This document shows, piece after piece, positions 12,638 through 64,000 of a DNA stretch of 64,000 bases. Source of the DNA: Diplonema japonicum (lineage: Eukaryota > Protista > Euglenozoa: Diplonemea); the NCBI GenBank assembly GCA_964019335.1, contig OZ025705.1:450407-514406 (forward strand). Direction: 5' to 3'. A model generated the notes under the pieces. The model was given only the letters and a program-made list of their open reading frames with translations. It did not search any database and was not told where the DNA came from. Both the position numbers and the translations under genes were made by a program. Within the stretch, counting starts at the first letter, position 1; every line of letters starts with the position of its first letter.

Positions 12638-12713
12638 TAAGTGTAATCTGACATAGTTGATTGTGGGCTTTCAGGGAAGCTTGTGTTTAATACAAAACTA
12701 CTGTATGTCACAT

Positions 12714-30673: not shown

Positions 30674-30765
30674 TTTTTTTATATAAAAAAAAAGAAGCGA
30701 GTGATAAAAGGGGTTTTTTTTTTGTGTGTTCTTTTGATATTTGAACAGAAGTATCCTTTGATGGT

Positions 30766-30785
30766 GTTGTTGTTGTTGTTGTTGC

Positions 30786-30850
<65 letters not shown>
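30766..30850. repeat. (TTG)n / (CAA)n microsatellite upstream of eEF3 copy 1
   Basis: Trinucleotide run with one CTG interruption. Confidence 0.95.
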
Positions 30851-30851
<1 letters not shown>

Positions 30852-31648: not shown

Positions 31649-31681
<33 letters not shown>

Positions 31682-31683
<2 letters not shown>

Positions 31684-33802: not shown

Positions 33803-34570
33803 TTTTATCTTCTTTTTTTTTGTCTTCTTGATGTCCTGTGGTGGGTGATTGTGAAAGTGTTCATATGGAATGCGAGGAGAGAGGGGAAAAAATAGAATTT
33901 AAAAAAAAAAAAAGAAAAAAAAGAAAAGATGAAGGGGAGGAGTGGGAATTGTTTAACCCTTAAACCGGACGGAGCACCGATACTTCATCAGCTTTTTTTT
34001 TTTTTTTTTTTTTTTTTGAAAACAAAAAAAAAAGAAAAAAAAAAAGAAAAAAAAAACATGTCTTGTATTGTCCTTGGAAAAAAAAAAAGACATGTTGTCG
34101 AGAATTCGAAATTCCTAACACATAACAAAATTGACCATTTAGATGTTTTGAGGATGCTATGGATTATTCTCTCGTGTTGATGAAATTGCCTTTTCCGTCC
34201 TTCAAAGGGTTAAAACAAGAAGAAAAAAGAGAATAAAAAGAAAAAGGGAGGGGGGGAATAGGGTGCTCACCAAGATAGCGTGCCTTGGAAAGAGAATTGA
34301 ATAAAAAAAAAATATAAAAAAAAAAACAAATGAGATGGAAGGTGGAGAACGAGCGACACGGAAACAGAGGTCGGTATGGCGGTCTTTTTTTTTTTTTCTT
34401 GACAGAAGTGATTCCTTTTTCTCTTCGTTTCTTCATTCTGTCAACAATCTACATGTATGACCAGCATCCTTAACAAGCTAAGCTTCCTGAGGGCTCCACA
34501 GCATCAAATAAGGTGCAGCTTTTATTTATTCTTTTGTTTCCACCCCCATTCCTTTTAAATTGTATAACCC

Positions 34571-44600: not shown

Positions 44601-44899
44601 GCCTTGTCACCCACGAGCTGGAAGACCACGGGGAACAGCTTGATCACGTAGGCCTCCAGGTGGTTCTTCAGGTCCGCCGAGAGGGACCCGAAAGCGAGGC
44701 ACGCCGCCTCCCTCTTCGCCTCAGCCTTCTTCCCGCCTCCGGTAGCGGTCTCGATGGCCTGGAAGAGACCAGCCTCCGCGAGGGCCGCTCCGTCCACCTC
44801 CCTCACCATCTCTGCGAGCTTCTGCGCCGCCTCCACGGAGGGCTTCGCCTCCAGCTCGGAGAACATCTTCACGGACTCAGTTGCAAGTTGGGGTGCCAT
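41630..44899 (-). CDS. eEF3: Elongation factor 3, copy 2 (same exons and introns; TAG stop)
   Basis: Translation identical to copy 1; stop is TAG at 41630-41632. Confidence 0.92.
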
Positions 44900-44991
44900 T
44901 TTTTTTATATAAAAAAAAAGAAGCGAGTGATAAAAGGGGTTTTTTTTTTGTGTGTTCTTTTGATATTTGAACAGAAGTATCCTTTGATGGT

Positions 44992-45011
44992 GTTGTTGTT
45001 GTTGTTGTTGC

Positions 45012-45097
<86 letters not shown>
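44992..45097. repeat. (TTG)n microsatellite, 21 nt longer than in unit A
   Basis: Direct inspection and the change in offset between the two units. Confidence 0.95.
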
Positions 45098-45098
<1 letters not shown>

Positions 45099-45895
45099 GT
45101 GTGTTTGACTTAAGAAAAAATAAAAAAGAAGAAGAAAAAGAAAACCAGGGGAAATAATAATAATTATTATAAGCCATAAACAATAAGAACAAAGAAACGA
45201 TAAAAGGAAGAGAAGGAAAAAAAAAGGGGGGGTGCTCTCTTTTTTTTTGATTTTTATTATTATTGTTGTTAAAAATTTAAGAAGATGGATCAATAATAAC
45301 CAAAAAGAAATGTGAAACTAAACTATACTTTCTGTCTTTTTTTATTTATTTATTTATTTTTTAAAAAAAAAGGCGATGTTTAAGGGCAAATCCCACTCGA
45401 GGACCACCCTTGAAAAAAAAAACAAGCCAAGCCAAGCCAAGGTAAGGTAAGAAGGAAAGGGTTTTTTTAGAAGATGAAGAGGGGTTACTTACTTGCCTCT
45501 GTTTTAAGAAAAATAAAATAAAATAAGAGGGGGAAAAGGAAGGGAGGACAGAAAGGAGGGGGGGGAAAAGAAGAAGAATAATAAAAATATAAAAATAAAA
45601 ATAAAAAACGTGCGTTTGTTCCCCTAAGCCCGAGACAAATCACTTTATTAAGGAAATACGAATCTATAAAAAAAAGGGGGGGGGGAAAGAGAAAAAAAAA
45701 GAATACTGACAAACTCCCGGATGCGAAAAAAGACCTGGGCATTTACAGTATTCGATTTAAATTTTTCAGTGTGCAAAGATGCTCACTCTTTAAATTAAAA
45801 AGAAAAAGAAAAAAAGAAAAGAAAAAAAAACCATGTAGCATCTTTAAAATAAAAAAAAAACCCCTTAATCTTACTCAATATAATTATATTTTACT

Positions 45896-45928
<33 letters not shown>

Positions 45929-45930
<2 letters not shown>

Positions 45931-48049
45931 AGTCAACCTCCTCCATCTTAGACTCACCCTCATCCTCAGCAGCAGTGGTGTCAGCCTCAACAGGAACATC
46001 TTCTTCATCATCATCATCGATTGACAGCCCCAGCTTGATCATACGGTGGATCCTTTCAGCGTAACCAGCAGGGTCCTCCAGAGAGAAACCGGAGGTGAGG
46101 AGCGAGGTCTCGAAGAGGAGGAGCACCAGGTCCTTCACAGTCTTGTCGTTGGCGTCGGAGTCAGCCTTCGACTTCAAGGTTTTCACGATCGGGTGCGCCG
46201 GGTTCACCTCCATGGTCTTCTTGCTCACCATGTAGCCGCTGCTGGAGGAGTCCCTCAGAGCCTGCATCTTCATGATCTGTTCCATGTGGGCGCTCCACCC
46301 GAACTCCGAGGTGACGAGGATGCAAGGGGCCTGCGCGAGACGGTCCGACAGCATCACCTTCTCCACCTTGTCTCCCAGGATGTCCTTCATGGTCTTGCAG
46401 AGGGTCTCGAAGGCAGCCTTCTCCTCCTCCTTCTGCTTCTTCTCCTCCTCCGTCTCCTCGAACTTCAACCCTTCCTTCGTCACGCACCTGAACTTCTTGT
46501 CCTCGTACTCCTTCAGCTGCTGCATCGCGTACTCGTCGATCGGGTCCGTCATCAGAAGCACCTCCAAACCCCTCTTCTTGCACTGCTCGATGAACGGAGA
46601 GTTCTCGATCTTGGCCTTGCTCTCCCCGGTGATGTAGTAGATCTCCTTCTGCTCCTCCTTCATCCTCGTCACGTAGTCCTTCAGAGAGGTCGTCTCCTCC
46701 CCGCTCTTCGTCGAGAAGTACCTCATGAACTCAGCGAGCTTCTTCCTGTTCTGCGAGTCCTCGTGGATCCCGAGCTTCAGGTTCTTCCCGAAGTGCTCGT
46801 GAAGCTTCGCGAAGTCCTCCTTGTTCTCGCTGATCTCCTCCACCATCTCAAGGGTCTTCTTCACGATGTTCTTCTTGATCACCTTCAGGATCTTGTTCTG
46901 CTGCAGGTTCTCACGCGAGATGTTCAGGGGAAGGTCCTCGCTGTCCACGATCCCCTTGATGAAGGAGAGCCACTCGGGGATGAGGTCCTCGCAGCTGTCC
47001 ATGATGAACACCCTCCTCACGTAGAGCTTGATGTTGGTCTTCTTCTTGTTCGGCTCGAACATGTCGAAGGGAGCCCTCCTCGGGATGAAGAGGATCGCCC
47101 TGAACTCCAGCTGTCCCTCCACCGCGAAGTGCTTCACCGCGAGGTGCTCCTCCCAGTCGTTCGAGATCGCCTTGTAGAAGCTCCCGTACTCCTCCTTCGT
47201 GATCTCCTTCGGGTCCCTCGTCCAGAGGGGCTTGTTCTTGTTCAGCTTCTCCATCTCCTTCGTCACCTCCTTCACCTTCTTCGTCTTCTTCTTCTTCTCC
47301 TCTCCCTCCTTCACCTCCTCCACCTTCGGTTCGTCCTCTCCTTCCTTCTTCTCCTCCTCCTTCTTCTTCTCCTCCTCCTCGTCCTCGTCCTCGTCATCCG
47401 TCACCTCCTTCTCGTTCGTCTTCTCCACCTCCAGCTCGATGTCGTAGCCGATGAACTCAGAGTGCTTCTTCACAAGGTCCTTGATCCTCCTCTCCTCCAA
47501 GAACTCCAGCTGGTCGTCCTTCAAATGGCAGATGATCTTGGTTCCCCTCTTCAGCTCCGCATCCTCGCACTTCGTCACCGTGAAGGTCCCCCCCGCAGCG
47601 GATTCCCACTGGTGGCACTCGTCGTCGTTGTGCTTCGAGATCACCGTCACCTTGTCCGACACCAGGTACGCGCTGTAGAAACCCACACCGAACTGCCCGA
47701 TCATCGACATGTCCGCCCCGGCCTCCAGAGCCTCCATGAACCCCTTCGTTCCGGACCTCGCGATCGTCCCCAGGTTGTTCACCAGGTCAGCCTTCGTCAT
47801 CCCCACACCCGTGTCCGTCAGCGTGATCGTCTTCGCCGCCTTGTCCGTGTGGATCTGGATCAGCATCCTCTCCTCCTCCTTCAGCGCTTCCTTGTCCAGC
47901 AGCGACATGTGGCGCATCTTGTCCAGAGCGTCAGACGAGTTCGAGATGAGCTCTCGCAAGAAGATCTCCTTGTTCGAGTAGAACGTGTTGATGATCAAGC
48001 TCATCAACTGGTTGATCTCAGCCTGGAATGCAAAGGTCTCTTCCGCCAT
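45929..48049 (-). CDS. HSP90: Cytosolic HSP90, copy 2
   Basis: Identical to copy 1 from ATG 48049. The track's extension to 48217 runs into unrelated repeat sequence. Confidence 0.96.
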
Positions 48050-48364
48050 TTTTATCTTCTTTTTTTTTGTCTTCTTGATGTCCTGTGGTGGGTGATTGTG
48101 AAAGTGTTCATATGGAATGCGAGGAGAGAGGGGAAAAAATAGAATTAGGTTCACTGCAGCTGCAGGTATGTACATATGTCCTGAAATGTTGTATTTGGAT
48201 GTAATAGAAAAGTACAAGAGGAGGGTATGTGTGTTTATACAACCTGTGTAAACAGATCGGTTCCTTAATCGTATTTAAAAAAAGAAGGGGGGGAAGCAAT
48301 ATATTTTTACAGGTAGGTAATGGGTGAGTGCGTTTATGTTTTGAACAACTGTGTAAAACAGTGC

Positions 48365-50450
48365 TCAGATATCGACCTGTGTAAACAGATCTGTTCCTTC
48401 CTTTCCAAGGTGCTCAGCTCTTTTCGAGCGGCTTGCCTTTTCTTTCTTCTCGCTCACAAAAAAATTAGGTTGAACCAACTTGTAGTTGATAGCAACGCGG
48501 ATTGATGCATTTAGAACATCCGATGACATTCTGCATCTGGCTTTTGACAAAGTCTTTGAAATCACTTTAAAGTGACGCTCCGTTGGTGCCTCAGAGGTTA
48601 AACTGCGCCCAAGCGTCAGCGCAAAGACAGCTAGCGTGTGAAGCATGCCAAGCTTCGACTTCCAAAAAGCAAAAAAGTTTAACGTTGGGCTGCGACCTAT
48701 TGCTAGGTACTCGTCGATCTGCATCCCCAGCTGCTGCCGATCTGCCATCATTTTTCGCAATTCAGTGAACGGGACGAGGTGATCCAGCAGTGTGTTTCGC
48801 AGCGTGACCAAGTCTGAAAGTTCTCCAGTTGATACTTTAGGATTCAGAAAAGAAAACAACCTGATACCGAGAAACGACATGTTTCGTTCGGCCCTTGCTT
48901 CGTAAACCTTGATGACTTCACAGACTGTGGTAGCATTGAGTGACCCCTCCACCTGGGATTCAAGGAATTTCTTCAAGCTCTTTCCAACAATGAAAATTTC
49001 ATATGCCACCATAGCCATGCCAGACGTGTCCCCTTGCACACGATCTGTCGCAACTGCAAAGGGTGTGGAAATCTGTATTGCGAATTCCAGCTCTGAGTCA
49101 AACTCTGCCTCTATGCCTGGAAAGAAGTCCAGGAGATCAGGATGGACTTCATCGTTTCGAAAAACAAATTCCATCTGGTCTTCGTGTACCTCTTGATCTG
49201 TCTCGTCTTTTCACGGCATACTCCATGCGAGACCTGTACGGTGTGGAGTGCCAACTGCCCAGCTTTCGAGGTCCATCTCTTGATCAGCGTTTTCACTTTG
49301 GCTCTAATGTTAGCCAGTCGCTCAATCTTGAAGATGTCACCAAGGGCAAGTTGCATGGAATGTGCAACACAACGATACGCTAGGACACCTTCGCAACTCA
49401 GCATTGTAGTTGTATCGTTCAAAAGCTGGTCCATTCCGGCAGAGAGCTCAGTGTTGTCGGAGTCGGTGTCGGTTTCGGAGTTGGAGTCAAGGTCAGTGAC
49501 ACTTGAAGCGTCACTACTGCTGGTGTTGCTGCTAACATCCTCAGTGTCGTCGAGTGAGAGGTCGTTCCACTTCGAAGTTTCGATGTATCTTTGCAAGCGC
49601 TGCTTGCATCGCACTTGCATTATCAGCACATACTGAAAATACATGTACAACATGGCTCCGAAGTTCCAGTATCATTTCACGGATGTGAGACGAAATGACA
49701 GCAGCAGTGGCACTCACTTTTGTAAGGTCTATCATCTTGCAAAAGTAGCTGTTCTTCCCATCTGACATACTAATGCCAAGGATGCTTCGACGGTTTATTG
49801 CGGCCCTGTCAACAAGGAGGTACACATTCTGCCCTTGTAGCCTGTTTAGGACAGCGTATGTCTCCTGTCCAAGTTCAACAACACGGCTTTGCACGTGTTT
49901 CCTGTTGATTCCTTTCAATTTGCCTGCATCGAAAAAGCTAGAACTTCCGATCACACAAAACGAACGGCAGGTAATACAGGCAATGGAAATAGGAAACACG
50001 ATCCACCATACTCAGAGCTCGCATCTCTTGGACAACACATCTCTTTGCTGCAAGATTTGAGCCTTGAGAATGAGGCGAACACAACCCTGGCGTCGGCTCA
50101 GAGATCGGACTGCACTTTTCTTTCGCCGGCTTGGGGATCTTTGCAGCTGTCTTCTTCTTCAGCTTTTCTGCCAACTTCGCTTTCGCACCAGGGCTGTGTC
50201 TGCACTTCCAGTGCTCCTTCAGTTTCCCCCATCTTGACCTGATGGTCACCGCACGTTCAACACACTCAGGAGCAAGACACGGCCGCTTCTCCATGACCGT
50301 GCCATCCTTATCCTTCGTCACTATCTTGCCAAAGTTGTACTCCTGAGAAGGGTCGATACCATGTGCGTCACTAATAGACCATGTCTTGTTGTCCCAGATG
50401 GATGTCTTGGGTGCTGTTGTAGAACATTCCTTGGCAGGTGCTTCCAACAT
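48365..50450 (-). pseudogene. Frameshifted hAT-superfamily transposase
   Basis: Four overlapping ORFs carry hAT motifs in order: BED-finger-like (TSIW...CLAPEC...KEHWKCRH), LLVD, CADNASAM, RCVAHSMQLA (CxxH), TRWN, and the dimerisation domain FW...LA...TSEAPTERHF...R.RMS. Confidence 0.85.
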
Positions 50451-50912
50451 GACTAGTGCGTTTCCGGACGAGGTGTGTGTTGCCTTAGGTTGTAAGGCTT
50501 CAGCCTTCAGAACCTTGATGGCGTCTTGCAGCTCCGTGATTCGTGCTTTGCAAGACCAAGTTTTGCCACGGTATCACGAAGCTGGTATGGGTTGTGGTTT
50601 ATCGTCTTTATGGCCTCAAGACGATAAACCCGTTCGTCTTCCACATTCGGGGGGAAGTGGTGCAGGTACCCGGGGTCCTGTGCATACTCACACGAAACAG
50701 CCTGGCAAGATGCCAACAATCTTCCCATCTCAGACAGAAACCTGTCGTCCTGTGTTGGTTTCTTGTGTCGCTCCCCTCCGGTGCCCCAGAAGTGGGCTCT
50801 GAAGGTTGTACCTTCTCCTTTCCCCTTCATGAAATACAACATTTCATCATGGCTGAGGCCATTCTTGTTGCCGGTCTGGGTAAGGTCTTGTGTTTTCACA
50901 TATTTCTGTGAG

Positions 50913-51235
50913 CAGTGATGGGTGAATCCGGTCCGGTCCGGTGTACCCAATTTACCAGACTGACCGGACTGACCGGATCGGCTGGACTGACCGGACTCGA
51001 AAATTTTTGCAATTTTTGACACACCTGCAAACACTTTTTTTTCAAATATTTTTGGACAATGATTTTTTTTTTCCTTTTTTTTTTTTTTTTTCTTCTTCTT
51101 CTTCTTCTTTGTACCACAGACATGCACAGCTCCATCAAGCCATTTGCACCTATCTACTCCAGTGCACTGCAGCTGCAGGTATGTACAAATGTCTGGTATG
51201 TACATATGTCCGGAAATGTTGTATTTGGATGTAAC
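50913..51235 (+). mobile_element. DNA-transposon end: CAGTGATGGGTGAATCC terminus, GACCG-type 5-mer subterminal repeats and shared internal sequence
   Basis: Same 17-bp terminus as 52183 and, inverted, 53018. About 50990-51235 recurs at about 53835-54062 and in part at 48152-48203. Confidence 0.65.
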
Positions 51236-51360
51236 CCAGCTGTGGTGATCGACGTGGAACGCAGAAGAAGCTACAACCCGGCCGTGGTGAGAGATATATG
51301 AGTTAAAGGACCTGCACAAGACTACTTGATTACAGGGGGTACACCACAGCTTCTTCTGCA

Positions 51361-52454
51361 TTCCGTGTCGTGTCCTTAATGTGTGCAGTGTTCAGCTCAA
51401 CCCCAGCTGGGGCGTCCTGGGTAACCAGATTCTGCTCATGCAGGGGTGGGTCATTCCAGTCACTGAAAAGTCGGAGCTTGGTGGAACGGTGGAACCAGTG
51501 AACCGGAACTTGGTGGAACAGGGAATTCCTTACCTTTTTTTTTTTTTTTTTTTTTTTTTCCTCTTTGCATCATCAAGGTCGAAAGTGGTGACTATATCAC
51601 CACAACACTGACAGCACAATATTCCGTGTCATGTCCTTAATGTGTGCAGTGTGCAGCTCAACACCAGAGCATCTGCAATATGTTCCTCCACTTGGGTGCT
51701 ACCAGTGATGACCAACGTGGAGGTCAACAGTGAACAACACATCTGATGTACTTCTTATATTTCCATATTTCTGTAATCCCCACCACTAAATAACATGAAA
51801 GAGGTAAAGGAGACCAGTGACAGGGGGTGCACCTCGCATCGTGTCCTTAATGCATGCAGTGTGCAGCTCAACCCCAGCTGGTGCCCTAAGTAGTTTACTC
51901 ACCCTGAGCATCTGCGATTTGTTCTTCCACTCAGGGTGCTACAGGTGATGACTGGCCAAGTGGATGGAGGAAAATGCCTGTTCGTCATGTTGGTGGCACC
52001 TGCACAAGAACTGTTAACTTGATACAGGGGGGGGGCACTGCAGCCAAGTTGTAGCTTCTTTTGTGTTCTGCATTGTGTCCTTAATGTGTGCAGTGTGCAG
52101 CTTAACCCCAGCCAGAGCAACACAACCCAGGGTAACCAACATTCTGTGCTCATGCAGTTTGCTGCCAATTCATCACCCTGAGCAGTGATGGGTGAATCCT
52201 AATTAGGACTAGACCAGACTGGACCAGACCAGACCAGACCAGACCGGACCAGACCAGACCAGACCAGACCAGACCAGACCAGACCAGACTGGACTGGACT
52301 GGACTGAACCAGACTGGACAAGATACAACCACAACACCACATCCCCCCTTTTTTTTTGCTGTGGAATTCAAATGTATAAACAGATGTCTACAAGAAAAGA
52401 TGTTACACAGGTACTGAGAGATGACAACAACAACAAAAACAATGAGAAACAAAG

Positions 52455-52485
<31 letters not shown>

Positions 52486-52620
52486 ACATTTAAGGGTACC
52501 TGTGGTATGTGGCAGGACGCCTGAAGAGTCTCAATCTATCTCTTGATCAAACCTTTCTGCTGTGGTGTGGCCTTCCATGTTGTGTCCTTAATGTGTGTGG
52601 TGTTCAGCTCAACCCTAGCC
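51361..52620. repeat. Five dispersed copies of a ~40-bp core tgtccttaatgtgtgcagtgtgcagctcaaccccagc
   Basis: Copies near 51370, 51631, 51841, 52075 and 52582. Confidence 0.8.
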
Positions 52621-53018
52621 AGGGTGCCCCAGGTAACCAAGATTCTGCACTCATGCGGTTTGCTTGGTGATGACTGATGAGGAGGTCAACAGTGAACACA
52701 TCTGATGTTTTTCTTATATTTTCATGTTATCCCCACCACCTGAAAAAGAAGATATTCGTTTTTTTTTTTTTTTCTTTGTTTCTCATTGTTGTTGTTGTTG
52801 TCATCTCTCAGTACCTGTGTAACATCTTTTCTTGTAGACATCTGTTTATACATTTGAACTCTGCAGCAAAAAAAAGGGGGGGATGTGGTGTTGTGGTTGT
52901 ATCTTGTATGGTCTGGTTCAGTCTGGTCCAGTCTGGTCAGTCTGGCATAATTGGGTCGAAATTCATGCCGGATCTGGTCCAGTCTGGTCTAGTCCTAATT
53001 AGGATTCACCCATCACTG
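52183..53018. mobile_element. Foldback/MITE-like element with ~270-bp inverted arms and CAGTG termini
   Basis: cagtgatgggtgaatcctaattaggactagaccagactggaccaga at 52183 is perfectly inverted, ending at 53018. Inner arms ~52300-52460 and ~52760-52925 are also inverted. No target-site duplication seen. Confidence 0.8.
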
Positions 53019-53280
53019 GACTCAGGGGACTCCAAGGGACAGGACAGGAGTCCCCTGAAATTTTCAGGGGTCTGGAGGGGACTCAGGGGACTGGAGGGAC
53101 TCAAGGGACTCAGGGGACTCTTGGGACCAAAAAATTTCATTGTGTTTTTTGTGTCACAAAGGCCCAAATTTAGGCTGGGGCTTGCATTTTTTTGGCACTT
53201 TTGGTTTCAAAGGCTCAAAAAAAGAGGTCCTAGGTTTGGGTGGGATGTGAGGCAAGGCTCATACTACCTTGTTGTGACTA

Positions 53281-53315
<35 letters not shown>

Positions 53316-53834
53316 TCAGGGGGTTTGGAGACCTGCTTTGAAAAAAATATTAAAAAGAGGCCTTTGCAAGAAAAGTACAAAGCAAAAAAAAAAAAAAAAA
53401 AAAAAAAAGTAAAAAAAAGGGATGGGCAGTGCTTTACACAGGTTGTATAAACATACCCTCCTCTTGTACATATTATTTATTATTTCCCCCCTTTTCTATT
53501 ACATCCAAATACAACATTTGATGTGGAAAGTAGAAACAACAGCTTGGCTTAGGTGTGTGATAAAATGTGAGAAGACAAGAAAAAAAAGAAGGAAAAAAAA
53601 GGTAAACACATCATGTATGTCAAAAAAAAATCAAGGATTTTTTTCTCTTTTTTTTTTCCCCATTTTTTTTTTCCAAAGGGAAAAAAAAAAAAAAAGTTGC
53701 AAAACTATCAAAAATAATGACAGTGTTGGGGAGAGTCCCATGAGTCCTGTGAGTCCTGTCAAGTCCCATCCTGTGGAGTCCCATGAGTCCCATCCAGGCC
53801 TGTATTCCGTTTTAGGGGATGGGATGGGACTGAC

Positions 53835-54062
53835 CAACACTGACTGGACTCAAAAATTTTCTGCAATTTTTGACACACCTGCAAACACTTTTTTTTCAAA
53901 TATTTTTGGACAATGATTTTTTTTTTTTGCTTTTTTTTTTTTCTTTTTCTTCTTCATACCACAGACATGCACAGCTCCATCAAGCCATTTGCACCTATCT
54001 ACTCTGGTGCACTGCAGCTGCAGGTATGTACATATGTCTGGAAATGTTGTATTTGGATGTAA
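53835..54062 (+). repeat. Second copy of the transposon subterminal/internal segment at ~50990-51235
   Basis: Shares gcaatttttgacacacctgcaaacac...gcagctgcaggtatgtacatatgtc...tttggatgtaa. Confidence 0.8.
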
Positions 54063-54066
54063 TATT

Positions 54067-54445
54067 GGGGCTCTGGTCTACAAGCAGGGTGAGAGCTGCC
54101 ACGACCCAAGGTGCAGGACTGAGGGGATGGATGTATGGGGTGACCATGCCCAGGGATGTGGCAATGCCAGGATTGCAAGGCATGACTGGGTGAAGGAGAC
54201 CATCCACAGACACTGTCAGTGGGCTGGGGTGAGTGCAATGATGGAGAAGATGGGGCTGATCCTGGGGTTGTCCCAGTGCCCAGCAGATGTGTTCTTCCCA
54301 GGTGGGGTGGGGGGTTCCCACCCAATGGCTATGGATGTGGTCATTGTGCACCCAAGGAACAAGTCTTGTGTCAACCAGGTGGTGAAGACTGTGGGGTATG
54401 CAGTGGCAAAGGTGGAACACTACAAGTGCCAGAAGTATGAGGCAG
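54067..54445 (+). mobile_element. Decayed fragment of the zinc-knuckle/endonuclease region of the retrotransposon at 56745-64000
   Basis: Gap-free alignment to 62752-63130 at a constant offset of 8685. Confidence 0.95.
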
Positions 54446-55800
54446 CCAGAGTGGAGGCAGCCAGTTGGGGCCTGACACACCTAGGGGTGGGATCCAGATG
54501 CCAGAGGGAGATCAGCTGATGGGAGTTGGGGCACCAGAAAGGGAACAGTGGGTGGAAGTAGGGGGAGACTTTGTTCAGCTTGACCTGATTGATGTGGTGA
54601 TGGGCATCCCAATTCCGAGAGCAATGGTGCCACTGAGGGTGAGGCTGGGGGACCGACTGCTCAAGTTCATCATCCAGTTTGAGGGCTGGGTGGGGATCAT
54701 CCTTGAAGAAGGAACAGACCCTGGAAGGGAGAGGACTGAGGAGATGCTTCTTGTGAAGGCTGAGTTGCTGGGTGTTCCACTGGGTTGGATGGAGAGTGCC
54801 ACAGCCACATTGTGGGTTGTGAGGTGCAGAAGTTGGAAACATACCATGAGTTTGAGTTCCTGAGGATGGTCCAGGATTTCCAGATCACATACGTGTGTGG
54901 GTGTTCGGCAGTGCAACCTGTTTGTTTCAAGGGTGGCGTGCTCAAGGGGACTCTGGAAATGGCATGGAGGGTGGTCAAGTTGCAGACCCAGGGGTGCAGA
55001 CACTGGGGAAGGAAGGGGTAGTGGGCATTGTGGTGGGAGCCAGCACTACCAAGGTGACACTACATGAGTTCTTGGAGAGGTGCAACACAAGGATAAGGGC
55101 CCCAGTGGGAAAGGTCAAGGACCTGATCAAAGTGAAGGCGTGGGTGAGGGATGGAAGGAAGGTCACCCTTGACATCTATGAGGGGAGGGGGCCCTGTGAG
55201 AAGGAGACAAGGTGCACTGTCCAAGACCATCTGTGGAAGATGGGTGTTGAAGAGGTTGACCTGCAGTCAGTGGTGGTGATGGTCCTGGGGTTGTTTGAGG
55301 ATGTCTCCTTTGAGAGGTACCTTGGGCTGTTGGCCTGGAAGAAGGAGGAAGACAGGGAGAGGTGGCCTGAGGTGGTTGCCACAGACCTCCCCACCCTGGA
55401 AGAGCTGAAGTGGAGCAAGAAGGACAAGAAGTGGGCCCAGGCCTGATGGGCCAGTACTGACTTGGATTGTGTGGAAGGTGGCTAGGTATGGGGGTGGATG
55501 GCACCGTGGTCAAAGCCAACATATGCAGGGGTGAGCTCAAGGGGATGACTGGGCCCCAGTTCAAGTTCTTGGCAGAGCACAGGTTGATGGAAGAGCTGGG
55601 GAGTGACAACCTGGTGTGGGACATGGTCAAGGTGCACAACAAGGAGAACTGGGCCCTGGTGAACAGTGCAGTGGCTTGGCTGCAGCTCGAGTCAGGGAGG
55701 GCACAGGTGGGGCCCATACCCCACAAGAAGAGGTCCAAAGGCTTGCTGGCCAGTGGGGGTGTGGGGGGCTGGTCCCCCCCCCCCTGCCATAGGAAGATGT
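54446..55800 (+). other. GC-rich, strongly CpG-depleted relic with coding-like texture, probably from another mobile element
   Basis: Purine-rich plus strand with broken frames (e.g. 54895-55446); fewer than about 10 CpGs seen in ~1.35 kb; no motif recognised. Confidence 0.4.
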
Positions 55801-56432
55801 GAAACTTTTTTTTTTTTTTTTTTCCAAGAAAAAAAAGGGAAAAATAAAAGAATAGGGAACAGGTGCTACAACAGCCAGGCCAGATAGAACCACTTAGATT
55901 TTTTTTTTTTTTCCTTTTTTTTTTTTTTTATTTTTCTGTTTTTCTTTTTCTTTTTGAAGTGGAACCATCTCAGTCAATGTTTTTTTTTTTTTTTTCTTCT
56001 TTTTTCTTTTGTGGTGATGTGTTTTTCCTGTTTTTGATTTTCTTCTTCCCCCACTCTATGCTTTTTCACATGGACATTGGTCACTCTGCCCCTTTCCCCT
56101 TTGTTGATTCTCCCTCTTTCCCCCTCCTAAATTTTACCCCCTGCCCCACTCATTCCTCCCTAGTATGTTTTTGAATTTGCCTCTTCTTCTTTTAAGCCTT
56201 TTTTGAGATTTTTATTTTTGAATTTTTATCATTTGGAGTTGCTTCTTCATCTTCCCCTCTCCCTCCCATAAAGAAAAAGAGAAACCCATGCCTTCCTCCC
56301 AGGTTGGAACTTGATTGTCTGTTTTGGAATATTTTTATTTTCTCTTAAGGTTTATCGTGCCTTGTGTGTGTCTTTTGAAGAAAAAAAAAAAACATTCTCA
56401 AGTCCCCCTTTTTATTTATTTTCTCAAGTCCC

Positions 56433-56464
<32 letters not shown>

Positions 56465-56490
56465 TTCTCAAGTCCCTCTTTTTATTTATT

Positions 56491-56544
56491 ACCAACGATT
56501 CTAAAGCTACAGTTTCTGTACTTTATTGTTTCTGTACTTTATTG
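56491..56544 (+). other. Spliced-leader exon copy (38 of 39 nt, 56491-56528) followed by a 16-nt truncated SL (56529-56544)
   Basis: accaacgattctaaagctacagtttctgtactttattg + tttctgtactttattg. The 3' half matches the conserved euglenozoan SL (CAGTTTCTGTACT.TATTG). Confidence 0.9.
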
Positions 56545-56744
56545 GTTGTTCATGTTCTGCTGGTGCCTGCCACCTCTGCCTGGGTTTGCCACTGTGTCCA
56601 TCGTCCATCGTCACCATTTTCTTGGGGGGTTGTTTTGCCTGTCAGCCTGCCAAACCCGCAAACCTGCAAACCTGCAAACCCGCAAACCCGCAAACCCACA
56701 AACCTGCAAACCTGCAAACCCGCAAACCTGCCTGCAAACCCACA
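56491..56744 (+). mobile_element. Short non-autonomous derivative: SL, truncated SL, ~107-bp element head and a degenerate (GCAAACCC)n tract
   Basis: 56545-56651 aligns with 56784-56890 and then passes directly into the same 8-mer repeat found at 63787. Confidence 0.7.
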
Positions 56745-56783
56745 AACCAACGATTCTAAAGCTACAGTTTCTGTACTTTATTG
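56745..56783 (+). other. Full 39-nt diplonemid-type spliced-leader exon at the 5' end of the retrotransposon
   Basis: AACCAACGATTCTAAAGCTACAGTTTCTGTACTTTATTG is exactly 39 nt and about 2 nt different from the Diplonema papillatum SL as I recall it. Confidence 0.92.
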
Positions 56784-56955
56784 GTCGTTCGTGTTCTGCT
56801 GGTGCCTGCCACCTCTGCCTGGGTTTGCTGCTGTGTCTGTTGTCTGTTGTTGCCATCGTCTGGGGGGGTTGTTTTGCCTGTCAGCCTGCCCGCTGCTTAC
56901 CGAAAGGATCCCCTCCCCCAACACACACTTTAAAAAAAAATAAAAAAAATAAAAA

Positions 56956-59900
56956 ATGGATCCAAGATGGAACGCAAGAGGAGGTGACCATGCAAACCGC
57001 AGGGAGAAGGAACCCCAACAGGCCGCCAGGCTGCACACGATGCCAGGGCCAACCCAACCAGACTATCTGGTTGGGCAGTATGAATCCCCACCCCCACCCC
57101 CTAGATCCCCCCACCCCCCTTTAGAAAAAAAAAATAAAATAAAAAAATCACTAGCAGAGACCGCGGTTTTGACCGCTGCTGCTACAGTTGCAACCACGAT
57201 CCCTGCAGCCGACCCTGCTATTGTTGAAGAGGGAAGAAAAGAGGGAGAAAAAAAGGGGTGGGTACTGGTGTATGGTGAACACCCTCCTGGGTTGAGGACG
57301 GGCCCGGCCCCTGCCTTCCTGAAAGCCCTGCTTTCAGGAAAGTGGGAGGCCCTGTCTGGGAACTCAGGGAGGGAGACCCTCCAATATGGGTACCGGTGGG
57401 AGGGGATGAACGCCAAGGTGTGCCCCACCATGGGGATCCCAGGGGGGGTGGAGGGGTGGGTGAGGGAGGTGGCTGCTGCTGCAGGGCTTGAGGTGGTCCC
57501 CAACCAGGTACTTGTCAACAAGTACAAGTCTGGTTGTGGGATTGCCGCCCACAAGGACGACGTGAGGCTGGGACCGATTGTCCTAGTCCTCTCGTATGGA
57601 GCTGAGACCACAATGGTCATGAGGAGGGGGGACAGGGTGGTGAAATACCTGGTGCCCCCCTTCTCATGGGCATTGTTGGAAGGTGAAGCGAGACACCAGT
57701 GGACGCACCACATCCCGTCTGGGATGTCCACTGGTGTCAGGGTGTCGATCACCCTGCGTGCGGTAGGCCCCAAGCTCACCTGCACACCCCAGGAAGACCC
57801 ATCCCCTGGGTTAACAGACGAACCCCCTTTTTTAGATCCCCTTTTTTGTGGGCAAGGGGGGGTGGCACTCCCAAGAGAGGATAGTGCCCCACCTGCCCCC
57901 CTTTTTTTTTTAGAACCCTCTTCGGAGGAAAACAGACCCTCTTCGGAGGAAAATAGAGAGAAAGGGGAAGAGGTGGCACTCCTGAGAGAGGGTGGTGCTC
58001 CTCCCCCCCATTTGTCCCCCCCTTTTTCATTTTTAGAGCCCTCTCCAGAGGAACCCTCCACGGAGGTAAAAAACAGACCCTCTTCGGAGGAAAACAGAGA
58101 GAGAGGGGAAGAGGTGGCACTCCTGAGAGAGGGTAGTGTTCCTCCCCCCCATTCGTCCCCCCCTTTTTCTTTTATAGAGCCCTCTCCAGAGGGACCCTCC
58201 ATGGAGGTGAAAAACAGACCCTCTTTGGAGGAAAAAAAGGCAGAGGGAGAGACAGCACGCCTGAGAGAAGGTAGTGCCCCTCCCTCTCTGCCCCCCATTT
58301 TTTCTGGACCCTCTATGGAGGTGTACACCCTGGTCCCCAAGGGCCGGGGGCTTTTTTTGAGGGTGGAAGGGAAAGAAAAAAAAAAAACAAACAAGGAGGA
58401 ACCTTTTTTCTTTTCAAACAACCAGGGGGACCCAGCACCCACCCCCACCGCCCGCCAAGGTGTGGTTGGGGTGGAGGCTGCGAGCGACGTGAGAGCACCA
58501 CTGCACACCCTTGTGAGAAGACAGAAAAGAGCCCCCTGGATTGCCATGGGTGGCAGGGAACCTAAGCCAGCGCCCAAGCGGAAGAAGAACAGGAGGAGGC
58601 ACAGGAGCGAAGCGGCCCTTCAGAGGCGTCGGGAGAAGAGGACCAAGGCGAGGGAGGGGGCGAGGGAGGCTGCCAGACAGGAGAAGAAAAGGCACCGTCG
58701 TGCGAGGAAAGAAGGGAGGAGGAGGGCCTGCAGAGAGGAACACGAGGCCGCCCTGGAACAGAAGCCAGATGACCCTGCAATGGGGCTGAAGCGGACCGAG
58801 GTGGGAACGCCTGGAGCCCAACCCCTGGCACCCAGAATCCCGGCACCTGGGGCTGCAACCGGCACAAGGAGGCACCGCAGACGGACGGGACACAGCAAGG
58901 AAGGGGTGAGATGGGAGCACCTGGGGGCGTGGGCCTGGGTCGCCCTGTTCTCCCTCTTGCTGATCCCAGGGGTGAGGCAGGTGCTGGGGGTGGGCATCGG
59001 GATGGCCCCCTCCTTCCTGCATGCGGCAGTGTTGTGGAAGAGGCCGGGGAGCGACAGGAGGACCACCCGCAGGTCAAGGGTACAGGTGGGGCCCCGAGGG
59101 GATGAATGGTCCGCCGGGGAGCTCGCTTGGCTAGCGGTAGGGGGCACTCTGGTGGGAAGCACTTCAGTTTGGATAGGGGGGCTGATGTCGCTCTGGGCCA
59201 TGGTGGAAGTGATGGTGGGGAAAGCTGGTGCTGGCCCGACCCAGAGATTCGGACCGGTAAAGCTGAAGAAGACAAGACGCGGATCGAGAGGTCACTACCG
59301 GCCGGTGTACTTGGGCCCGCCTAGAAGCTCAAGACGCAGAAAAAAGAAGGAGGACGCCAAGCAAGCGGCGAAGGAACGAGCTGAGACGGAGGATAAGCTC
59401 TTTCAGGCCGAACACCTGGACCCCTTTGCGGACTTGACGCTGGCAGGGGACGCGTTGCAAGGAGGTGGTGACCCTCCCCCCATGGATTTGGATGATGAGC
59501 ACATGGAGGCGCAGAAGGAGGGGGAAAAAGAAGGATCAGACAAACATCAATGCCGGATGGAAGACTGCTCTTTCCGCACCAGTGTGGCAAGCTGTCTAGT
59601 TAAACACCTCAATGCGGTCCACCATCATTTTGTGAAACAAGAGCAGGCGAGGAGCATGAAGGTGAACCTCTGTGGAACGTGTGCTGCGGCGTGCTCGTCG
59701 AACCAGACGCACTGTGCACTACACAGGCAGCGGAATCTGTGGAACCCCGACAAACAACCCAGGGCCGGCAAGTCAGTGGACGAGATCATGAAGAGCTTCA
59801 AGCTGACGAGGAGATCGACGGAGAAGGACGGGAACTGCATGTTCCACGCCCTGGCCGGTTCGCTCGGGGAAGCCTACGGCGACCACACCCACATCAGGAG

Positions 59901-62900
59901 CGAGGTTGTAGAATGGATGAAACACCGGGAGGAGCACTATGCCCCGTTTTGCAGTGAGGGTTGGGACCGGTACTTGGAAGGGATGGGCACAGCAGCGACG
60001 TGGGGAGACCACTTGTGCCTGGCAGCCGCAGCACAAGCGTTTGGCCGCACGATACTCGTGGTTGCTGGGGGGAACAACCCAGTCCTGATGATAGGGGAGT
60101 ACAACTCCGACCACGAGAAGGTGGTGGTGCTGGCGTACAACGGCAACCACTACGAGTATGCAGTCGGAGAGGAGGAGTCGATGATGATGCTCCTTGATGA
60201 GTCCCAATCGGTAGCTCTACAAAAGGCAGGTAAGCAACCCTCCGAGGCCCCGGGTGAGGACATCGGGGAGTGGGACATAATAGACCGTGCGATCCCTGGA
60301 TACGGGAAGGCAGGGGTGTTGGACCAGATGGGGGCAAGGAACCAGCAATTCCTGTACTGTCCGGTGGCGAACTGCGCTAGGTCGAAGTGCAAAAGCACGA
60401 CCCCGTTCAACTCGACAAGGGTATGGAAGTGTCACCTGGATGGGCACCTGGAGAGTGATGAGATCCCGGAGAGCGTTCTGAGGAGACTGGACCTCGAGAG
60501 GTGCCTGGTGTGCAGGGGCTGTGTGTGGAAGGGTCAGGGGTGCCACGACGAGTGCAAAAAGGCGGTGCGAAGGGAAGGGGAATACACGACCCCCCCGCCG
60601 GCCCCGACGAGGACCGAGTTACCCAGCCTGGAAGCCATAGCCGCCATGAACGTCACGACCATGGGGTCGATCCCGACGAGCCTTCAAAGACTGTGGGGGC
60701 TTACCCTTAAGCACACTCTGGGCCGGGCGGTGAAGGACAACACAGAGGAGGCTTGGCTGCTGGTGGCGATGCTCCCCAAAGCCTGCCTGTGGAAGAAGAG
60801 GGGAGGGAAGAAGCGGGACAAGGAGACGGAGCTGAGTGTCCAGGCCAGATTGGAGGAGTGGGAGAAGGGAAATTACATGGCCCTCTGGAATAAGCTGGAA
60901 TCAGGTGAGAAGGGGGAACCTAAGAACGACGAGGTCTCTAAGGTCGCCAGGGCCACGGAACTGTGCAGCAAAGGGAGGTTCTCGGCAGGAAACGCGGCGC
61001 TTGTAGCCCAGGGGCTGGCGGAAGACAATGAGGATTGCTGGAGAGCGCTGCAGAGCAAACATCCAGAGCCACTACACCCCCAATGGGACAACCCGGCGAA
61101 GACGAAGGAAGCGGTAGAAGTCTTGCCAGAAGAAGTGCTGGACGCAATCAGGGACTTCCCGAGGGGGACTGCTGCGGGACCGACTGGTCTGAGAGCCCAG
61201 CACATCAAGGACGCGGTGGACGGAGCTTTTGAGTCTCAAGGCTGTTTGATGTCGGTGACGAGGGCAGTCAACGCATTAGCTAGAGGCACGGCCCCTAGGG
61301 AGGTGGCTCCGCTGATGGCAGGGGCGAACCTTGTGGCCCTCAAGAAGAACGACAGGGACGTGCGGCCCATAGCCGTTGGGGATGTGCTGCGTCGGCTGGT
61401 GGGGAAATCCCTTGTGAAGAAGATCGCTCCGGAAGTGGCCTCTTCGTACCTGAAGAAAGGCGGCCAGGTGGGGGTATCGGTCCCTGCTGGAATGGAGGCG
61501 GCTATACACACCATCAGGCAGTATGTGGACAGGGAACGGGGCAACAAGCAGGAAAACAAGGTGATCCTCAAGATCGACTACGCCAACGCCTTCAACAGTG
61601 TTTGTCGGAGGCAGCTGTGCTCACAGGCCTATGAGCAAGCGTCGGGGCTGTATGCGTGGGCCGATTGGTGCTACAGGGTGCCCTCCCAATTATACTACAA
61701 CGGAAAGGTGATTAAGTCCCAGGAAGGGGTGCAACAGGGGGACCCGATGGGACCGCTGCTGTTCTCTCTGGCCATCCAACCCCTGGTGAACAAGATAAGT
61801 GAAGACTGCAACCTGGACATCCTCCAGTTCTACCTGGACGATGGCGTCCTTGTGGGGAATGTGGATGAAGTGAGAAAGGCGTACAACATCTTGTGTGAGC
61901 TGAGCGGAATGATAGGGCTGAAAGTGAAACCCCAGAAGTGCGAGCTCATATGGGTTAGTGGCGACCTCCCCCAGACAGTGGAGGACACAGGCTTCGATGG
62001 CCTGACAGAAGAGAATTTCCACAAAGAGAGGAACTTCATGCTCCTGGGGGCGCCGATAGGATCGCCGGAGTACACGCAAGCCTTTCTGAACAAACGCTTG
62101 GACGCGCTGGAAGAGAACTTCGACATGCTGACCAAGGTGGGGAGGCAGACAGGGTACACACTTCTCCGGTATTGCAGCTCATACAGCAAACTGGTGTTTT
62201 ACATGAGAGTGGTCCCAGACTCGCATGTGGGAGGGGTCATGCACAGGTTCGACGAGATGGTGCGGAAGACGATGTCGAAGGTGTGCGGCATGCAGTTCGA
62301 GAACGGGTCGAAAGAATGGCAGCAGGCGAAACTGTCCGTAAAAGTCGGTGGGCTTGGGATGAGGAGCTGCCAGGAGCACCTGCGCGCGGCCAACATGGCT
62401 TCGAGGGCGTCGACGATGAAGCTGTGCAAGGAGCTGGATCCCAAATACGAACATGGGCTGGAAGGGGGTGTATGGGGGAGCTGGCTCGAGTGGTTCAACA
62501 GGACGAAGGGCGGCATGCAGATTACACCCGACATGGTGGCCAAGGCCCCCCACATCTGCAGCCAGAGGTGGCTCTCTAGGGTGCTTGATGAGAAGGCGCT
62601 GGAGGACCTCTTGGCGAAAGCAGATGCACGCTCGAGAGCGAGGTTGATGTCGGAGTCAATGCACTATGCGGGAGCGTGGTTGACGGCGACGCCTGACTTC
62701 TACAACCAGCTGTCGGACAACGAGTTTGGGGCTCTGATCAAGTGGTGGTTGGGGGCTCCGGTCTACAAGCAGGGTGAGAGCTGCCACGACCCGAGGTGCA
62801 AGACTGAGGGGATGGACGTATGGGGTGACCATGCCCAGGGATGCGGCAACGCCAGGATTGCGAGGCACGACCGGGTGAAGGAGACCATCCACAGACACTG

Positions 62901-64000
62901 TCAGTGGGCCGGGGTGAGCGCAACGATGGAGAAGACGGGGCTGATCCCGGGGTCGTCCCAGCGCCCGGCGGACGTGTTCTTCCCAGGTGGGGTGGGGGGT
63001 TCCCGCCCAATGGCTATGGACGTGGTCATCGTGCACCCGAGGAACGAGTCTTGTGTCAACCAGGCGGCGAAGACTGCGGGATACGCAGCGGCGAAGGCGG
63101 AACACTACAAGCGCCAGAAGTATGAGGCGGAGCTCGCCAAGACACGCGTGGCCTTTGTACCTTTCGCGATGGAGACCTTTGGGGGGTTCGGGGAGGCAGC
63201 AGTCTACCTCACGAAGAAACTGTCCAGGAGCATAGCTGCGCGGGCTCACGGGGACAGAGTCTCGATACACAGGCGTGTGGTCCAAGAGGTGTCAACGGCC
63301 ATGATGAGATCGATAGCAGGGGCGCTGTTAGTCAAAGGGCCTGTACAGTTGGATCCAGGGCCCCCGGTACCGGACGGCGAAGAGGAAAAAAAGGACAACG
63401 AGGAAGCGAACAACGAACCCAACACTGAATCCAACACTGACCTCACAGAGGACTCCTTCGGCAATGAAAAAACCACCGAAGCTGAGGAGTCGTCCGAGAG
63501 GGAAGTGAAGGGACAGGGAGGCGGACCCCCAATCACGGTGGCCCACCAGCTGGATGCCCTTCTGGAGCAGACGAAGAAGGACCTGGACGCCCGAATGCAG
63601 CAGCAGCGAAAGGCGGAACCGGTGGAGGGTGGAACACAAGGGAAAGCGGGAGCAGGACTCGAAGCAGCCTCGCCGGGAGGAGAAGACACGGAGATGGTCG
63701 GAACAGGATCCAGCGAGAGGGCTGGGCAGGGAGGGGAGCTTGACCCGAAGGCCCAGGAAGATGGGAAGAGACAAGGGGCGACTGACGCAAACCCGCAAAC
63801 CCGCAAACCCGCAAACCCGCAAACCCGCAAACCCGCAAACCCGCAAACCCGCAAACCCGCAAACCCGCAAACCCGCAAACCCGCAAACCCGCAAACCCGC
63901 AAACCCGCAAACCCGCAAACCCGCAAACCCGCAAACCCGCAAACCCGCAAACCCGCAAACCCGCAAACCCGCAAACCCGCAAACCCGCAAACCCGCAAAC
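56956..64000 (+). CDS. Retrotransposon polyprotein >=2348 aa: AlkB, Pro/Glu repeats, basic/hydrophobic region, C2H2, OTU, Zn fingers, RT, CCHC, RLE, acidic tail
   Basis: Manual frame +1 translation from ATG 56956 (in-frame TAA at 56950) finds no stop to 64000. Not in the ORF track because there is no stop codon. Confidence 0.92.
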   Translation, partial: MDPRWNARGGDHANRREKEPQQAARLHTMPGPTQPDYLVGQYESPPPPPRSPHPPLEKKNKIKKSLAETAVLTAAATVATTIPAADPAIVEEGRKEGEKKGWVLVYGEHPPGLRTGPAPAFLKALLSGKWEALSGNSGRETLQYGYRWEGMNAKVCPTMGIPGGVEGWVREVAAAAGLEVVPNQVLVNKYKSGCGIAAHKDDVRLGPIVLVLSYGAETTMVMRRGDRVVKYLVPPFSWALLEGEARHQWTHHIPSGMSTGVRVSITLRAVGPKLTCTPQEDPSPGLTDEPPFLDPLFCGQGGVALPREDSAPPAPLFFLEPSSEENRPSSEENREKGEEVALLREGGAPPPHLSPPFSFLEPSPEEPSTEVKNRPSSEENRERGEEVALLREGSVPPPHSSPPFSFIEPSPEGPSMEVKNRPSLEEKKAEGETARLREGSAPPSLPPIFSGPSMEVYTLVPKGRGLFLRVEGKEKKKTNKEEPFFFSNNQGDPAPTPTARQGVVGVEAASDVRAPLHTLVRRQKRAPWIAMGGREPKPAPKRKKNRRRHRSEAALQRRREKRTKAREGAREAARQEKKRHRRARKEGRRRACREEHEAALEQKPDDPAMGLKRTEVGTPGAQPLAPRIPAPGAATGTRRHRRRTGHSKEGVRWEHLGAWAWVALFSLLLIPGVRQVLGVGIGMAPSFLHAAVLWKRPGSDRRTTRRSRVQVGPRGDEWSAGELAWLAVGGTLVGSTSVWIGGLMSLWAMVEVMVGKAGAGPTQRFGPVKLKKTRRGSRGHYRPVYLGPPRSSRRRKKKEDAKQAAKERAETEDKLFQAEHLDPFADLTLAGDALQGGGDPPPMDLDDEHMEAQKEGEKEGSDKHQCRMEDCSFRTSVASCLVKHLNAVHHHFVKQEQARSMKVNLCGTCAAACSSNQTHCALHRQRNLWNPDKQPRAGKSVDEIMKSFKLTRRSTEKDGNCMFHALAGSLGEAYGDHTHIRSEVVEWMKHREEHYAPFCSEGWDRYLEGMGTAATWGDHLCLAAAAQAFGRTILVVAGGNNPVLMIGEYNSDHEKVVVLAYNGNHYEYAVGEEESMMMLLDESQSVALQKAGKQPSEAPGEDIGEWDIIDRAIPGYGKAGVLDQMGARNQQFLYCPVANCARSKCKSTTPFNSTRVWKCHLDGHLESDEIPESVLRRLDLERCLVCRGCVWKGQGCHDECKKAVRREGEYTTPPPAPTRTELPSLEAIAAMNVTTMGSIPTSLQRLWGLTLKHTLGRAVKDNTEEAWLLVAMLPKACLWKKRGGKKRDKETELSVQARLEEWEKGNYMALWNKLESGEKGEPKNDEVSKVARATELCSKGRFSAGNAALVAQGLAEDNEDCWRALQSKHPEPLHPQWDNPAKTKEAVEVLPEEVLDAIRDFPRGTAAGPTGLRAQHIKDAVDGAFESQGCLMSVTRAVNALARGTAPREVAPLMAGANLVALKKNDRDVRPIAVGDVLRRLVGKSLVKKIAPEVASSYLKKGGQVGVSVPAGMEAAIHTIRQYVDRERGNKQENKVILKIDYANAFNSVCRRQLCSQAYEQASGLYAWADWCYRVPSQLYYNGKVIKSQEGVQQGDPMGPLLFSLAIQPLVNKISEDCNLDILQFYLDDGVLVGNVDEVRKAYNILCELSGMIGLKVKPQKCELIWVSGDLPQTVEDTGFDGLTEENFHKERNFMLLGAPIGSPEYTQAFLNKRLDALEENFDMLTKVGRQTGYTLLRYCSSYSKLVFYMRVVPDSHVGGVMHRFDEMVRKTMSKVCGMQFENGSKEWQQAKLSVKVGGLGMRSCQEHLRAANMASRASTMKLCKELDPKYEHGLEGGVWGSWLEWFNRTKGGMQITPDMVAKAPHICSQRWLSRVLDEKALEDLLAKADARSRARLMSESMHYAGAWLTATPDFYNQLSDNEFGALIKWWLGAPVYKQGESCHDPRCKTEGMDVWGDHAQGCGNARIARHDRVKETIHRHCQWAGVSATMEKTGLIPGSSQRPADVFFPGGVGGSRPMAMDVVIVHPRNESCVNQAAKTAGYAAAKAEHYKRQKYEAELAKTRVAFVPFAMETFGGFGEAAVYLTKKLSRSIAARAHGDRVSIHRRVVQEVSTAMMRSIAGALLVKGPVQLDPGPPVPDGEEEKKDNEEANNEPNTESNTDLTEDSFGNEKTTEAEESSEREVKGQGGGPPITVAHQLDALLEQTKKDLDARMQQQRKAEPVEGGTQGKAGAGLEAASPGGEDTEMVGTGSSERAGQGGELDPKAQEDGKRQGATDANPQTRKPANPQTRKPANPQTRKPANPQTRKPANPQTRKPANPQTRKPANPQTRKPANPQTRKPANPQTRK
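63787..64000. repeat. Perfect (GCAAACCC)n array, >=26 units, open at the window edge
   Basis: Direct inspection. Confidence 0.98.

Follow-up and report, generated by a model that had tools for sequence, protein, structure and literature searches.

A 64,000-nt stretch of the Diplonema japonicum genome (GenBank assembly GCA_964019335.1, contig OZ025705.1, positions 450,407 to 514,406 of the forward strand; hereafter the window) carries what appears from its sequence to be a SLACS/CRE-like non-LTR retrotransposon with an N-terminal AlkB-family Fe(II)/2OG dioxygenase domain. The domain is catalytically complete and seems to be a selected, conserved part of the element, and our tentative reading is that it demethylates the RNA of the element that encodes it. 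As the sequence-only reading of this DNA had proposed, AlkB is carried by the element itself; we find that it forms the N-terminal part of an AlkB-OTU-RT-endonuclease ORF. In the ORF listing, this single frame (56956..63999, + strand) extends for at least 2348 codons from its first ATG without a stop in the window, and encodes in order AlkB, a linker, a zinc finger, an OTU protease, a reverse transcriptase (RT) and an R2-type endonuclease, with AlkB and the RT sharing one open frame. Over 56956-59400 the AlkB frame contains no stops, compared to 37 and 19 in the other two forward frames. A chance ORF or frame artefact was ruled out, as 0 of 5000 shuffles of the linker stayed open, and so was a host AlkB gene merely abutting the element, as the same fusion is present on separate contigs of Diplonema papillatum.

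The remaining parts of the ORF, all on the + strand, identify the type of element. The low-complexity linker contains an in-frame internal repeat of 2.5 copies of a 141-nt unit (57929..58284; repeat search), followed by a C2H2-like zinc finger (59551..59628), which was recognized as a motif by eye and aligned with the D. papillatum element. Further downstream are an OTU cysteine protease domain (59827..60150; PF02338, E 4.9e-12) and the RT core (61342..61953; PF00078, E 2.2e-16) with YLDD at 61831, whose closest solved relatives are R2 proteins (E 8e-08). The C-terminal zinc knuckle and restriction-like endonuclease (62620..63360) gave a model with a pLDDT of 96, which matched R2 proteins with Z 16.1 and 15.4, the next match reaching 7.0; in Foldseek, ranks 1-7 were all R2. 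Pfam recognized AlkB, OTU and RT over the whole ORF and nothing else. Both the combination of RT and C-terminal restriction-like endonuclease within one ORF and the zinc finger (a motif seen by eye) with the 141-nt repeat ahead of the RT are CRE/SLACS traits, and the nearest RTs were D. papillatum proteins automatically named SLACS, in a comparison set without trypanosomatid references. Extra domains seen in the RT relatives P0165, P0221, P0231, P0235 and P0251 are OTU, USP-type protease (UCH) and RNase H1 N-terminal domains, while further matches have PHD or Ulp1 domains; the RT clade appears to collect ubiquitin-type proteases.

Translation of 57370-57760 recovered every AlkB motif that had been named from the sequence alone, each in its expected place on the + strand. 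Numbering residues from nt 56953, these are RETLQYGY (57370-57393), the 2OG-binding pair N189 and Y191 within PNQVLVNKY, the iron ligands H200-x-D202 (57550-57558) and distal H252 (57706-57708), and the 2OG-binding R263 and R269 of RVSITLR, an RxxxxxR pattern (57739-57759); the 2OG-binding pair and the iron ligands were also located by alignment. The domain is catalytically complete, as had been claimed, with the H200/D202/H252 triad, N189, Y191, R263 and R269 all intact. Across 125 aligned sequences H200, D202, H252, Y191 and R247 are invariant, and the window copy has a W in place of a lid tyrosine that 119 of 124 relatives retain. The span first assigned to the domain, 57370..57760, does enclose the motifs but starts too late: the fold begins near 57250, and PF13532, the alignment and the structural model together place the AlkB-family domain with its lid strands at 57250..57771 on the + strand. 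Since the PF13532 match in the ORF reached E 6e-14 and 53 bits against a Pfam cut-off of 31, it is not a chance match; NCBIfam AlkB models scored far under their cut-offs on the domain.

An AlphaFold2 model of residues 100-276 (pLDDT 88.4, pTM 0.86; alignment n = 125) contains a double-stranded beta-helix core with N-terminal lid strands, so that the fold expected of an AlkB enzyme is present in the predicted structure. In a fold search of 48,161 chains the best 13 matches were AlkB-family proteins with Z 14.3-18.5, including ALKBH6 (Z 18.5, rmsd 2.8, 165 aligned) and E. coli AlkB (Z 17.4, rmsd 2.6, 168 aligned), and Foldseek gave a concordant result. NgTET1 ranked 25th at Z 11.2, compared to 16-18.5 for most AlkB proteins, and no TET/JBP family produced a Pfam match in the ORF. 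Judged by modelled fold and by profile, the domain belongs to the AlkB family and is not closer to TET/JBP, in agreement with the earlier statement that it is not of the TET type.

We found the same fusion in a second species. The D. papillatum proteins P0155 and P0156 have AlkB, OTU and RT in one ORF and in the same order, and since no contig of the four runs compared bridges the whole D. japonicum element, these ORFs provide independent proof of the fusion. Between the window element and P0155, identity is 40% in AlkB, 50% in the RT and 26% in the OTU region, while the linker aligns with a score of 45 against a mean of 46 for shuffled sequences. The D. papillatum proteins KAJ9442719.1 and KAJ9464152.1, named 'SLACS 132 kDa', form the sister RT group (SH-aLRT 91) and share the AlkB-linker-ZnF-OTU-RT-RLE order, at 40% identity in AlkB and 47-50% in the RT. 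Of the AlkB-bearing models of D. papillatum, 8 were checked and all 8 retain the full ligand motif; most are near-identical copies, seven being the same throughout the catalytic stretch, with P0214 at 79% identity. Two D. papillatum families, each form of which occurs on three separate contigs, have a 531-aa AlkB module that is 99% alike, whereas their RT regions are just 53% identical, which suggests a recent swap of the module between families.

Since AlkB has remained intact at 40% identity next to a linker reduced to the level of shuffled sequence, and since the 99% module is shared between families, the domain seems to be a selected, conserved part of the element. Neutral evolution among copies, which the sequence-only reading had named as an outcome that would count against it, fits neither the retention of the ligands across two species nor the pattern in run X9, where one contig diverging over 57301-57492 has 15 synonymous changes in 51 sites versus 10 non-synonymous changes in 141 sites, counted from 40 of 41 differences listed and after removal of changes common to other runs. 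This corresponds to an omega of ~0.2 (Fisher p 1.5e-4) for a stretch picked after its divergence was seen, on that one contig. The same contig also carries Y145H, Y147H and R269H, the last a CpG-type change that is rare in run X4 (~0.6% of summed depth).

Other RT relatives appeared to lack the domain: AlkB was detected in 0 of 51, of which only 2 have more than 1000 residues ahead of the RT core, and in 0 of 57 cluster members. P0221, P0227 and P0228 are gene models that begin downstream of an AlkB that P0154 shows, and P0251 and P0253, with ~1800-1900 residues before the RT, are without AlkB. A word-based search for the AlkB region in proteins of 1291-4111 aa returned 0 of 917 at low sensitivity, having missed P0030, which lies within that range. 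Element-borne AlkB is found in eight D. papillatum gene models, two of them named tRNA methyltransferases; in P0019, P0030, P0213 and P0214 it is annotated as tRNA methyltransferase or joined to unrelated models.

To place the domain, we searched 1.84 billion representatives and obtained 1407 matches at E up to 0.001. The best 150 of these 1407 include three D. papillatum proteins of ~40% identity that cluster with SLACS-named models, as well as ALKBH8-like proteins; 133 of the 150 are at most 250 aa long, and 17 of 17 non-Diplonema relatives checked among them derive from metagenomic or read assemblies. Among solved structures, the closest by sequence were ALKBH8 (E 2.9e-08) and then S. pombe Ofd2 (E 5e-05), neither of which is a classical repair demethylase, while ALKBH5, a structural match at Z 18.0, was absent from the 37 PDB sequence matches (E up to 1). 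A family profile matched 34 viral loci, of which 10 bear the names of giant-virus MAGs; the top BFVD matches were giant viruses and RNA-virus polyproteins, the first three being Megavirus and Pithovirus proteins, and the four top Atlas clusters listed were 60-100% viral. Two viral-looking relatives, P0061 and P0067, combine AlkB in one protein with a methyltransferase, either of the mRNA cap N7 type or of the FtsJ type.

In phylogenetic trees the element domains fell into a weak group (184 rows) or, in a 34-row tree of BLAST neighbours that excludes P0214, P0133 and P0074, two of them were joined at 91/81 as long branches; neither tree has an ALKBH5 row. Both trees are poorly resolved, and in both the element domains are apart from the two ALKBH8-like rows. 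The RRM-AlkB-methyltransferase layout of ALKBH8 is absent, Pfam having recognized neither an RRM nor a methyltransferase in the ORF. The nearest sequences are virus-associated AlkBs and ALKBH8, and a viral donor of the domain is a lead.

The element is preceded by a spliced-leader (SL) sequence. A 39-nt euglenozoan SL exon followed by GT lies at 56745..56783 on the + strand, and 37 of its 39 bases agree with the row 'Euglenozoa 14' in the accessible part of the SL table of PMC3795323. The exon stands 172 nt ahead of the ORF start, its first four bases overlap the end of a preceding 8-mer array, and its position 4 is C, not U. We take the 'Euglenozoa 14' row to be the Diplonema leader. The interval 56784..56955 (+ strand) presumably represents the 5' UTR of the element, or the start of the SL intron plus UTR, with a boundary inferred from the sequence. 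Rfam returned no SL family over 50000-57300, its seven matches all lying under the gathering score. Sequence comparison identified a short non-coding unit directly upstream (56491..56744, + strand), comprising an SL exon without its first base and with a 16-nt internal duplication, ~110 nt resembling the 5' region of the element, and a degenerate 8-mer array; this is probably an internally deleted copy of the element. At the other end, the ORF runs on into a perfect 8-mer array of 26.9 copies that exits the window (63786..64000, + strand; repeat search) and is a probable 3' tail or target repeat. The terminal bases of the arrays at 63786-64000 and 56651-56744 equal the first four of the SL exon, and in other runs the 8-mer repeat abuts internal points of the element, on either side. 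The 8-mer array could serve as a 3' tail and pair with the target, and the upstream SL exon could represent the target site instead of belonging to the element RNA.

We also compared the window with run X1, from which it differs by 27 T>C, 3 A>G and 2 G>A. Among the 40 of 189 rows listed, all 27 T>C sites are TpG within 56991-58991, while 59321-62323 is identical in both; the window may combine 5' and 3' parts of different age, the 5' part being the older. In the AlkB region (57271-57789), 16 of 31 CpGs carry + strand mutations, 8 silent and 8 non-silent; silent changes are not over-represented (p 0.27), and no ligand is affected. Since the AlkB region of the window copy lost these CpGs, AlkB did not shield the DNA of this copy, and a link between the enzyme and the CpG decay, called unproven in the sequence-only reading, is unsupported. 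A CpG-mutated fragment of the endonuclease region (54067..54443, + strand; 91% identical to 62752-63128) has lost 31 of 32 CpGs and carries just two other substitutions in 377 nt. CpG observed/expected values are 0.03-0.12 across 52001-56000, the affected region spans 52001-59000 with CpG loss ending near 59000, and the CpG changes are strand-biased at 27:3 (p 8e-6) and 23:8 (p 0.01). This looks like a targeted, RIP-like process and not slow decay.

Non-LTR proteins show cis preference for their encoding RNA. By analogy with such proteins, and with slightly less than an even chance in our estimate, the AlkB domain demethylates the RNA of its own element in cis. The polyprotein would bind the RNA that encodes it and so tether the enzyme there; the enzyme would oxidize N-methyl groups, either m1A and m3C, which block reverse transcriptase, or m6A as a host-control mark; and the template of at least 7 kb would more often be copied full length, or would escape sequestration. 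The OTU domain could act on ubiquitin or free the N-terminal part. Demethylation of its own RNA would be the simplest benefit, since the polyprotein is expected to hold that RNA, and the fusion of two relatives to a cap N7- or FtsJ methyltransferase argues for RNA as the target. Structure does not select a substrate, because DNA and RNA enzymes tie: ALKBH6, ALKBH5 and ALKBH3 lie within Z 17.8-18.5, with E. coli AlkB at 17.4. PMC9289625 reports in vitro demethylation of m6A RNA by the AlkB of an orchid Gypsy element and describes the AlkBs of RNA viruses as RNA demethylases. Removal of m6A need not help the element, since in human L1, according to the accessible text of PMC7873242, m6A aids retrotransposition and ALKBH5 suppresses it.

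Other substrates were considered alongside the element RNA. A DNA substrate, with the enzyme repairing 1mA/3mC or removing 6mA on the opened target or the new cDNA, is unlikely, although in structure ALKBH3, ALKBH2, E. coli AlkB and NMAD-1 are on a par with the RNA enzymes, the endonuclease brings the protein to target DNA, and the element CpGs are heavily mutated by the host. Methyltransferases produce 3mC as a by-product. However, ALKBH2 has itself expanded in the host lineage, with four copies in D. papillatum, and ALKBH2 and ALKBH3 are weak by sequence (E 0.013 or worse). We regard as equally unlikely an ALKBH8-/Ofd2-like hydroxylase that would modify a host tRNA or protein, for instance a wobble uridine or a histone, so that the element is translated or inserted more readily. 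ALKBH8 and Ofd2, whose substrates are the wobble uridine of tRNA and histone, lead the solved sequence matches, and ALKBH8-like proteins are among the best 150 of 1407; in addition, the OTU protease here and the USP-type protease in relatives indicate that such elements collect enzymes that modify host proteins. Against this, the ORF is without the RRM and methyltransferase domains, and in both poorly resolved trees the element domains stand apart from the two ALKBH8-like rows.

Trypanosome cap 4 contains m6,6A and m3U, and the enzyme could demethylate bases of the SL cap, allowing the RT to copy through the SL and restore a full 5' junction. The complete 39-nt SL exon directly upstream of the ORF, the SL exon that also heads the short copy, the relatives joined to cap-type methyltransferases, and the removal of m3U by FTO (in the accessible text of PMC11431407) are in line with this. 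We nevertheless consider it a rather poor prospect, as SL position 4 is C and not U, the SL may be a target site outside the element RNA, a diplonemid cap structure was not found in the accessible literature (PMC8061765), and trypanosomatid CRE elements are described without an AlkB domain in the accessible sections of PMC12278014. Its most elaborate form, in which a diplonemid SL-targeting element took a giant-virus AlkB that strips methyls from SL-cap bases so that the RT reads through, and in which the module is valued and swapped between families, strikes us as highly improbable. That the domain is now a non-catalytic or neutral passenger, retained because it binds nucleic acid or through hitch-hiking, is very unlikely: a single X9 contig carries R269H plus two changes in the lid, the element domains are long branches, and AlkB went undetected in other RT relatives, most of which have short pre-RT regions, but the ligands are all kept between species whose RTs are 47-50% identical and whose linker is randomized, and R269H is CpG-type and makes up ~0.6% of summed depth in X4. 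Some AlkB proteins oxidize 5mC weakly or in RNA. Oxidation of 5-methylcytosine that opposes CpG silencing and mutation of the element would accord with the extreme CpG loss around and inside it and with the 5mC methyltransferases that D. papillatum encodes (accessible text of PMC10161547). We think this scarcely probable given a fold that is AlkB-like rather than TET-like and the 16 of 31 CpGs lost in the AlkB region of the window copy.

AlkB within a replication polyprotein is likewise found in Alpha/Betaflexiviridae and Closteroviridae, which were among the structural matches, and some flexiviruses pair AlkB with an OTU protease. In contrast to these RNA viruses, the window element resides in a genome as a retrotransposon that encodes RT and endonuclease, and AlkB identity is ~14-24%. 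The orchid Ty3/Gypsy element (Phalaenopsis paALKBH5-like, PMC9289625) is, like the window element, a retrotransposon with a catalytically intact AlkB motif; it is an LTR element that encodes an ALKBH5/ALKBH9B-type AlkB in a separate ORF, whereas the window element is non-LTR, has a virus-associated/ALKBH8-like AlkB fused in frame to the RT, and is common to two species. With the trypanosomatid CRE clade (SLACS, CZAR, CRE1, CRE2), as presented in the accessible part of PMC12278014, the window element shares a single ORF, zinc fingers, an internal repeat, RT, restriction-like endonuclease and, apparently, a link to SL RNA genes. It differs by the added AlkB and OTU, the full SL exon upstream and, as far as it can be followed, an end in an 8-mer array where CRE has poly(A); the true end of the element lies beyond the window. 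The DNMT retrotransposons of Symbiodinium and Klebsormidium (PMC5890265, in part) similarly captured a nucleic-acid-modifying enzyme that is under purifying selection; their enzymes add methyl groups, whereas the window AlkB would remove or oxidize them.

Capture of AlkB is therefore already known from orchid Gypsy and RNA viruses, and the non-LTR fusion appears to be new. No report of AlkB in non-LTR elements was found in the literature searched, with subscription journals mostly and Repbase entirely outside it, and the available part of a study of AlkB clades (PMC4738411) describes no such fusion. The fusion is publicly annotated under automatic names only: the portion of the D. papillatum genome paper at hand (PMC10161547) refers to SLACS RTs and, without connecting the two, to a dozen AlkB-type genes, and its main text is, to that extent, silent on it. 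Our results would add non-LTR retrotransposons to the known cases of AlkB capture, here involving another AlkB lineage and a fusion that has persisted across species, and suggest that RNA methylation or damage repeatedly limits retrotransposition. The 'dozen AlkB-type genes', read as host demethylases in the same portion of that paper, could include element-borne domains. D. papillatum, described as a model diplonemid, has near-identical copies of the element.

Finally, several other features were observed in the window. Two copies of a 6.5-kb block, 99.7% identical, lie at 27405-33899 and 41631-48146; each holds an EF3-like ABC gene together with one that resembles HSP83, and both EF3-like ORFs end at a homopolymer run and look shortened. 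A MITE-like element with 46-nt perfect inverted ends occupies 52183-53018, and its end motif recurs near 50915, beside broken ORFs in 48365-50950 that gave no Pfam match and presumably resemble hAT transposase. On the minus strand, tandem paralogues at 16403-19312 and 19860-22637 appear by eye to be fusions of flavoprotein reductase-like and multi-pass transporter-like parts, and a 923-aa ORF at 9899-12670, also on the minus strand, looks by eye like an ionotropic glutamate receptor.
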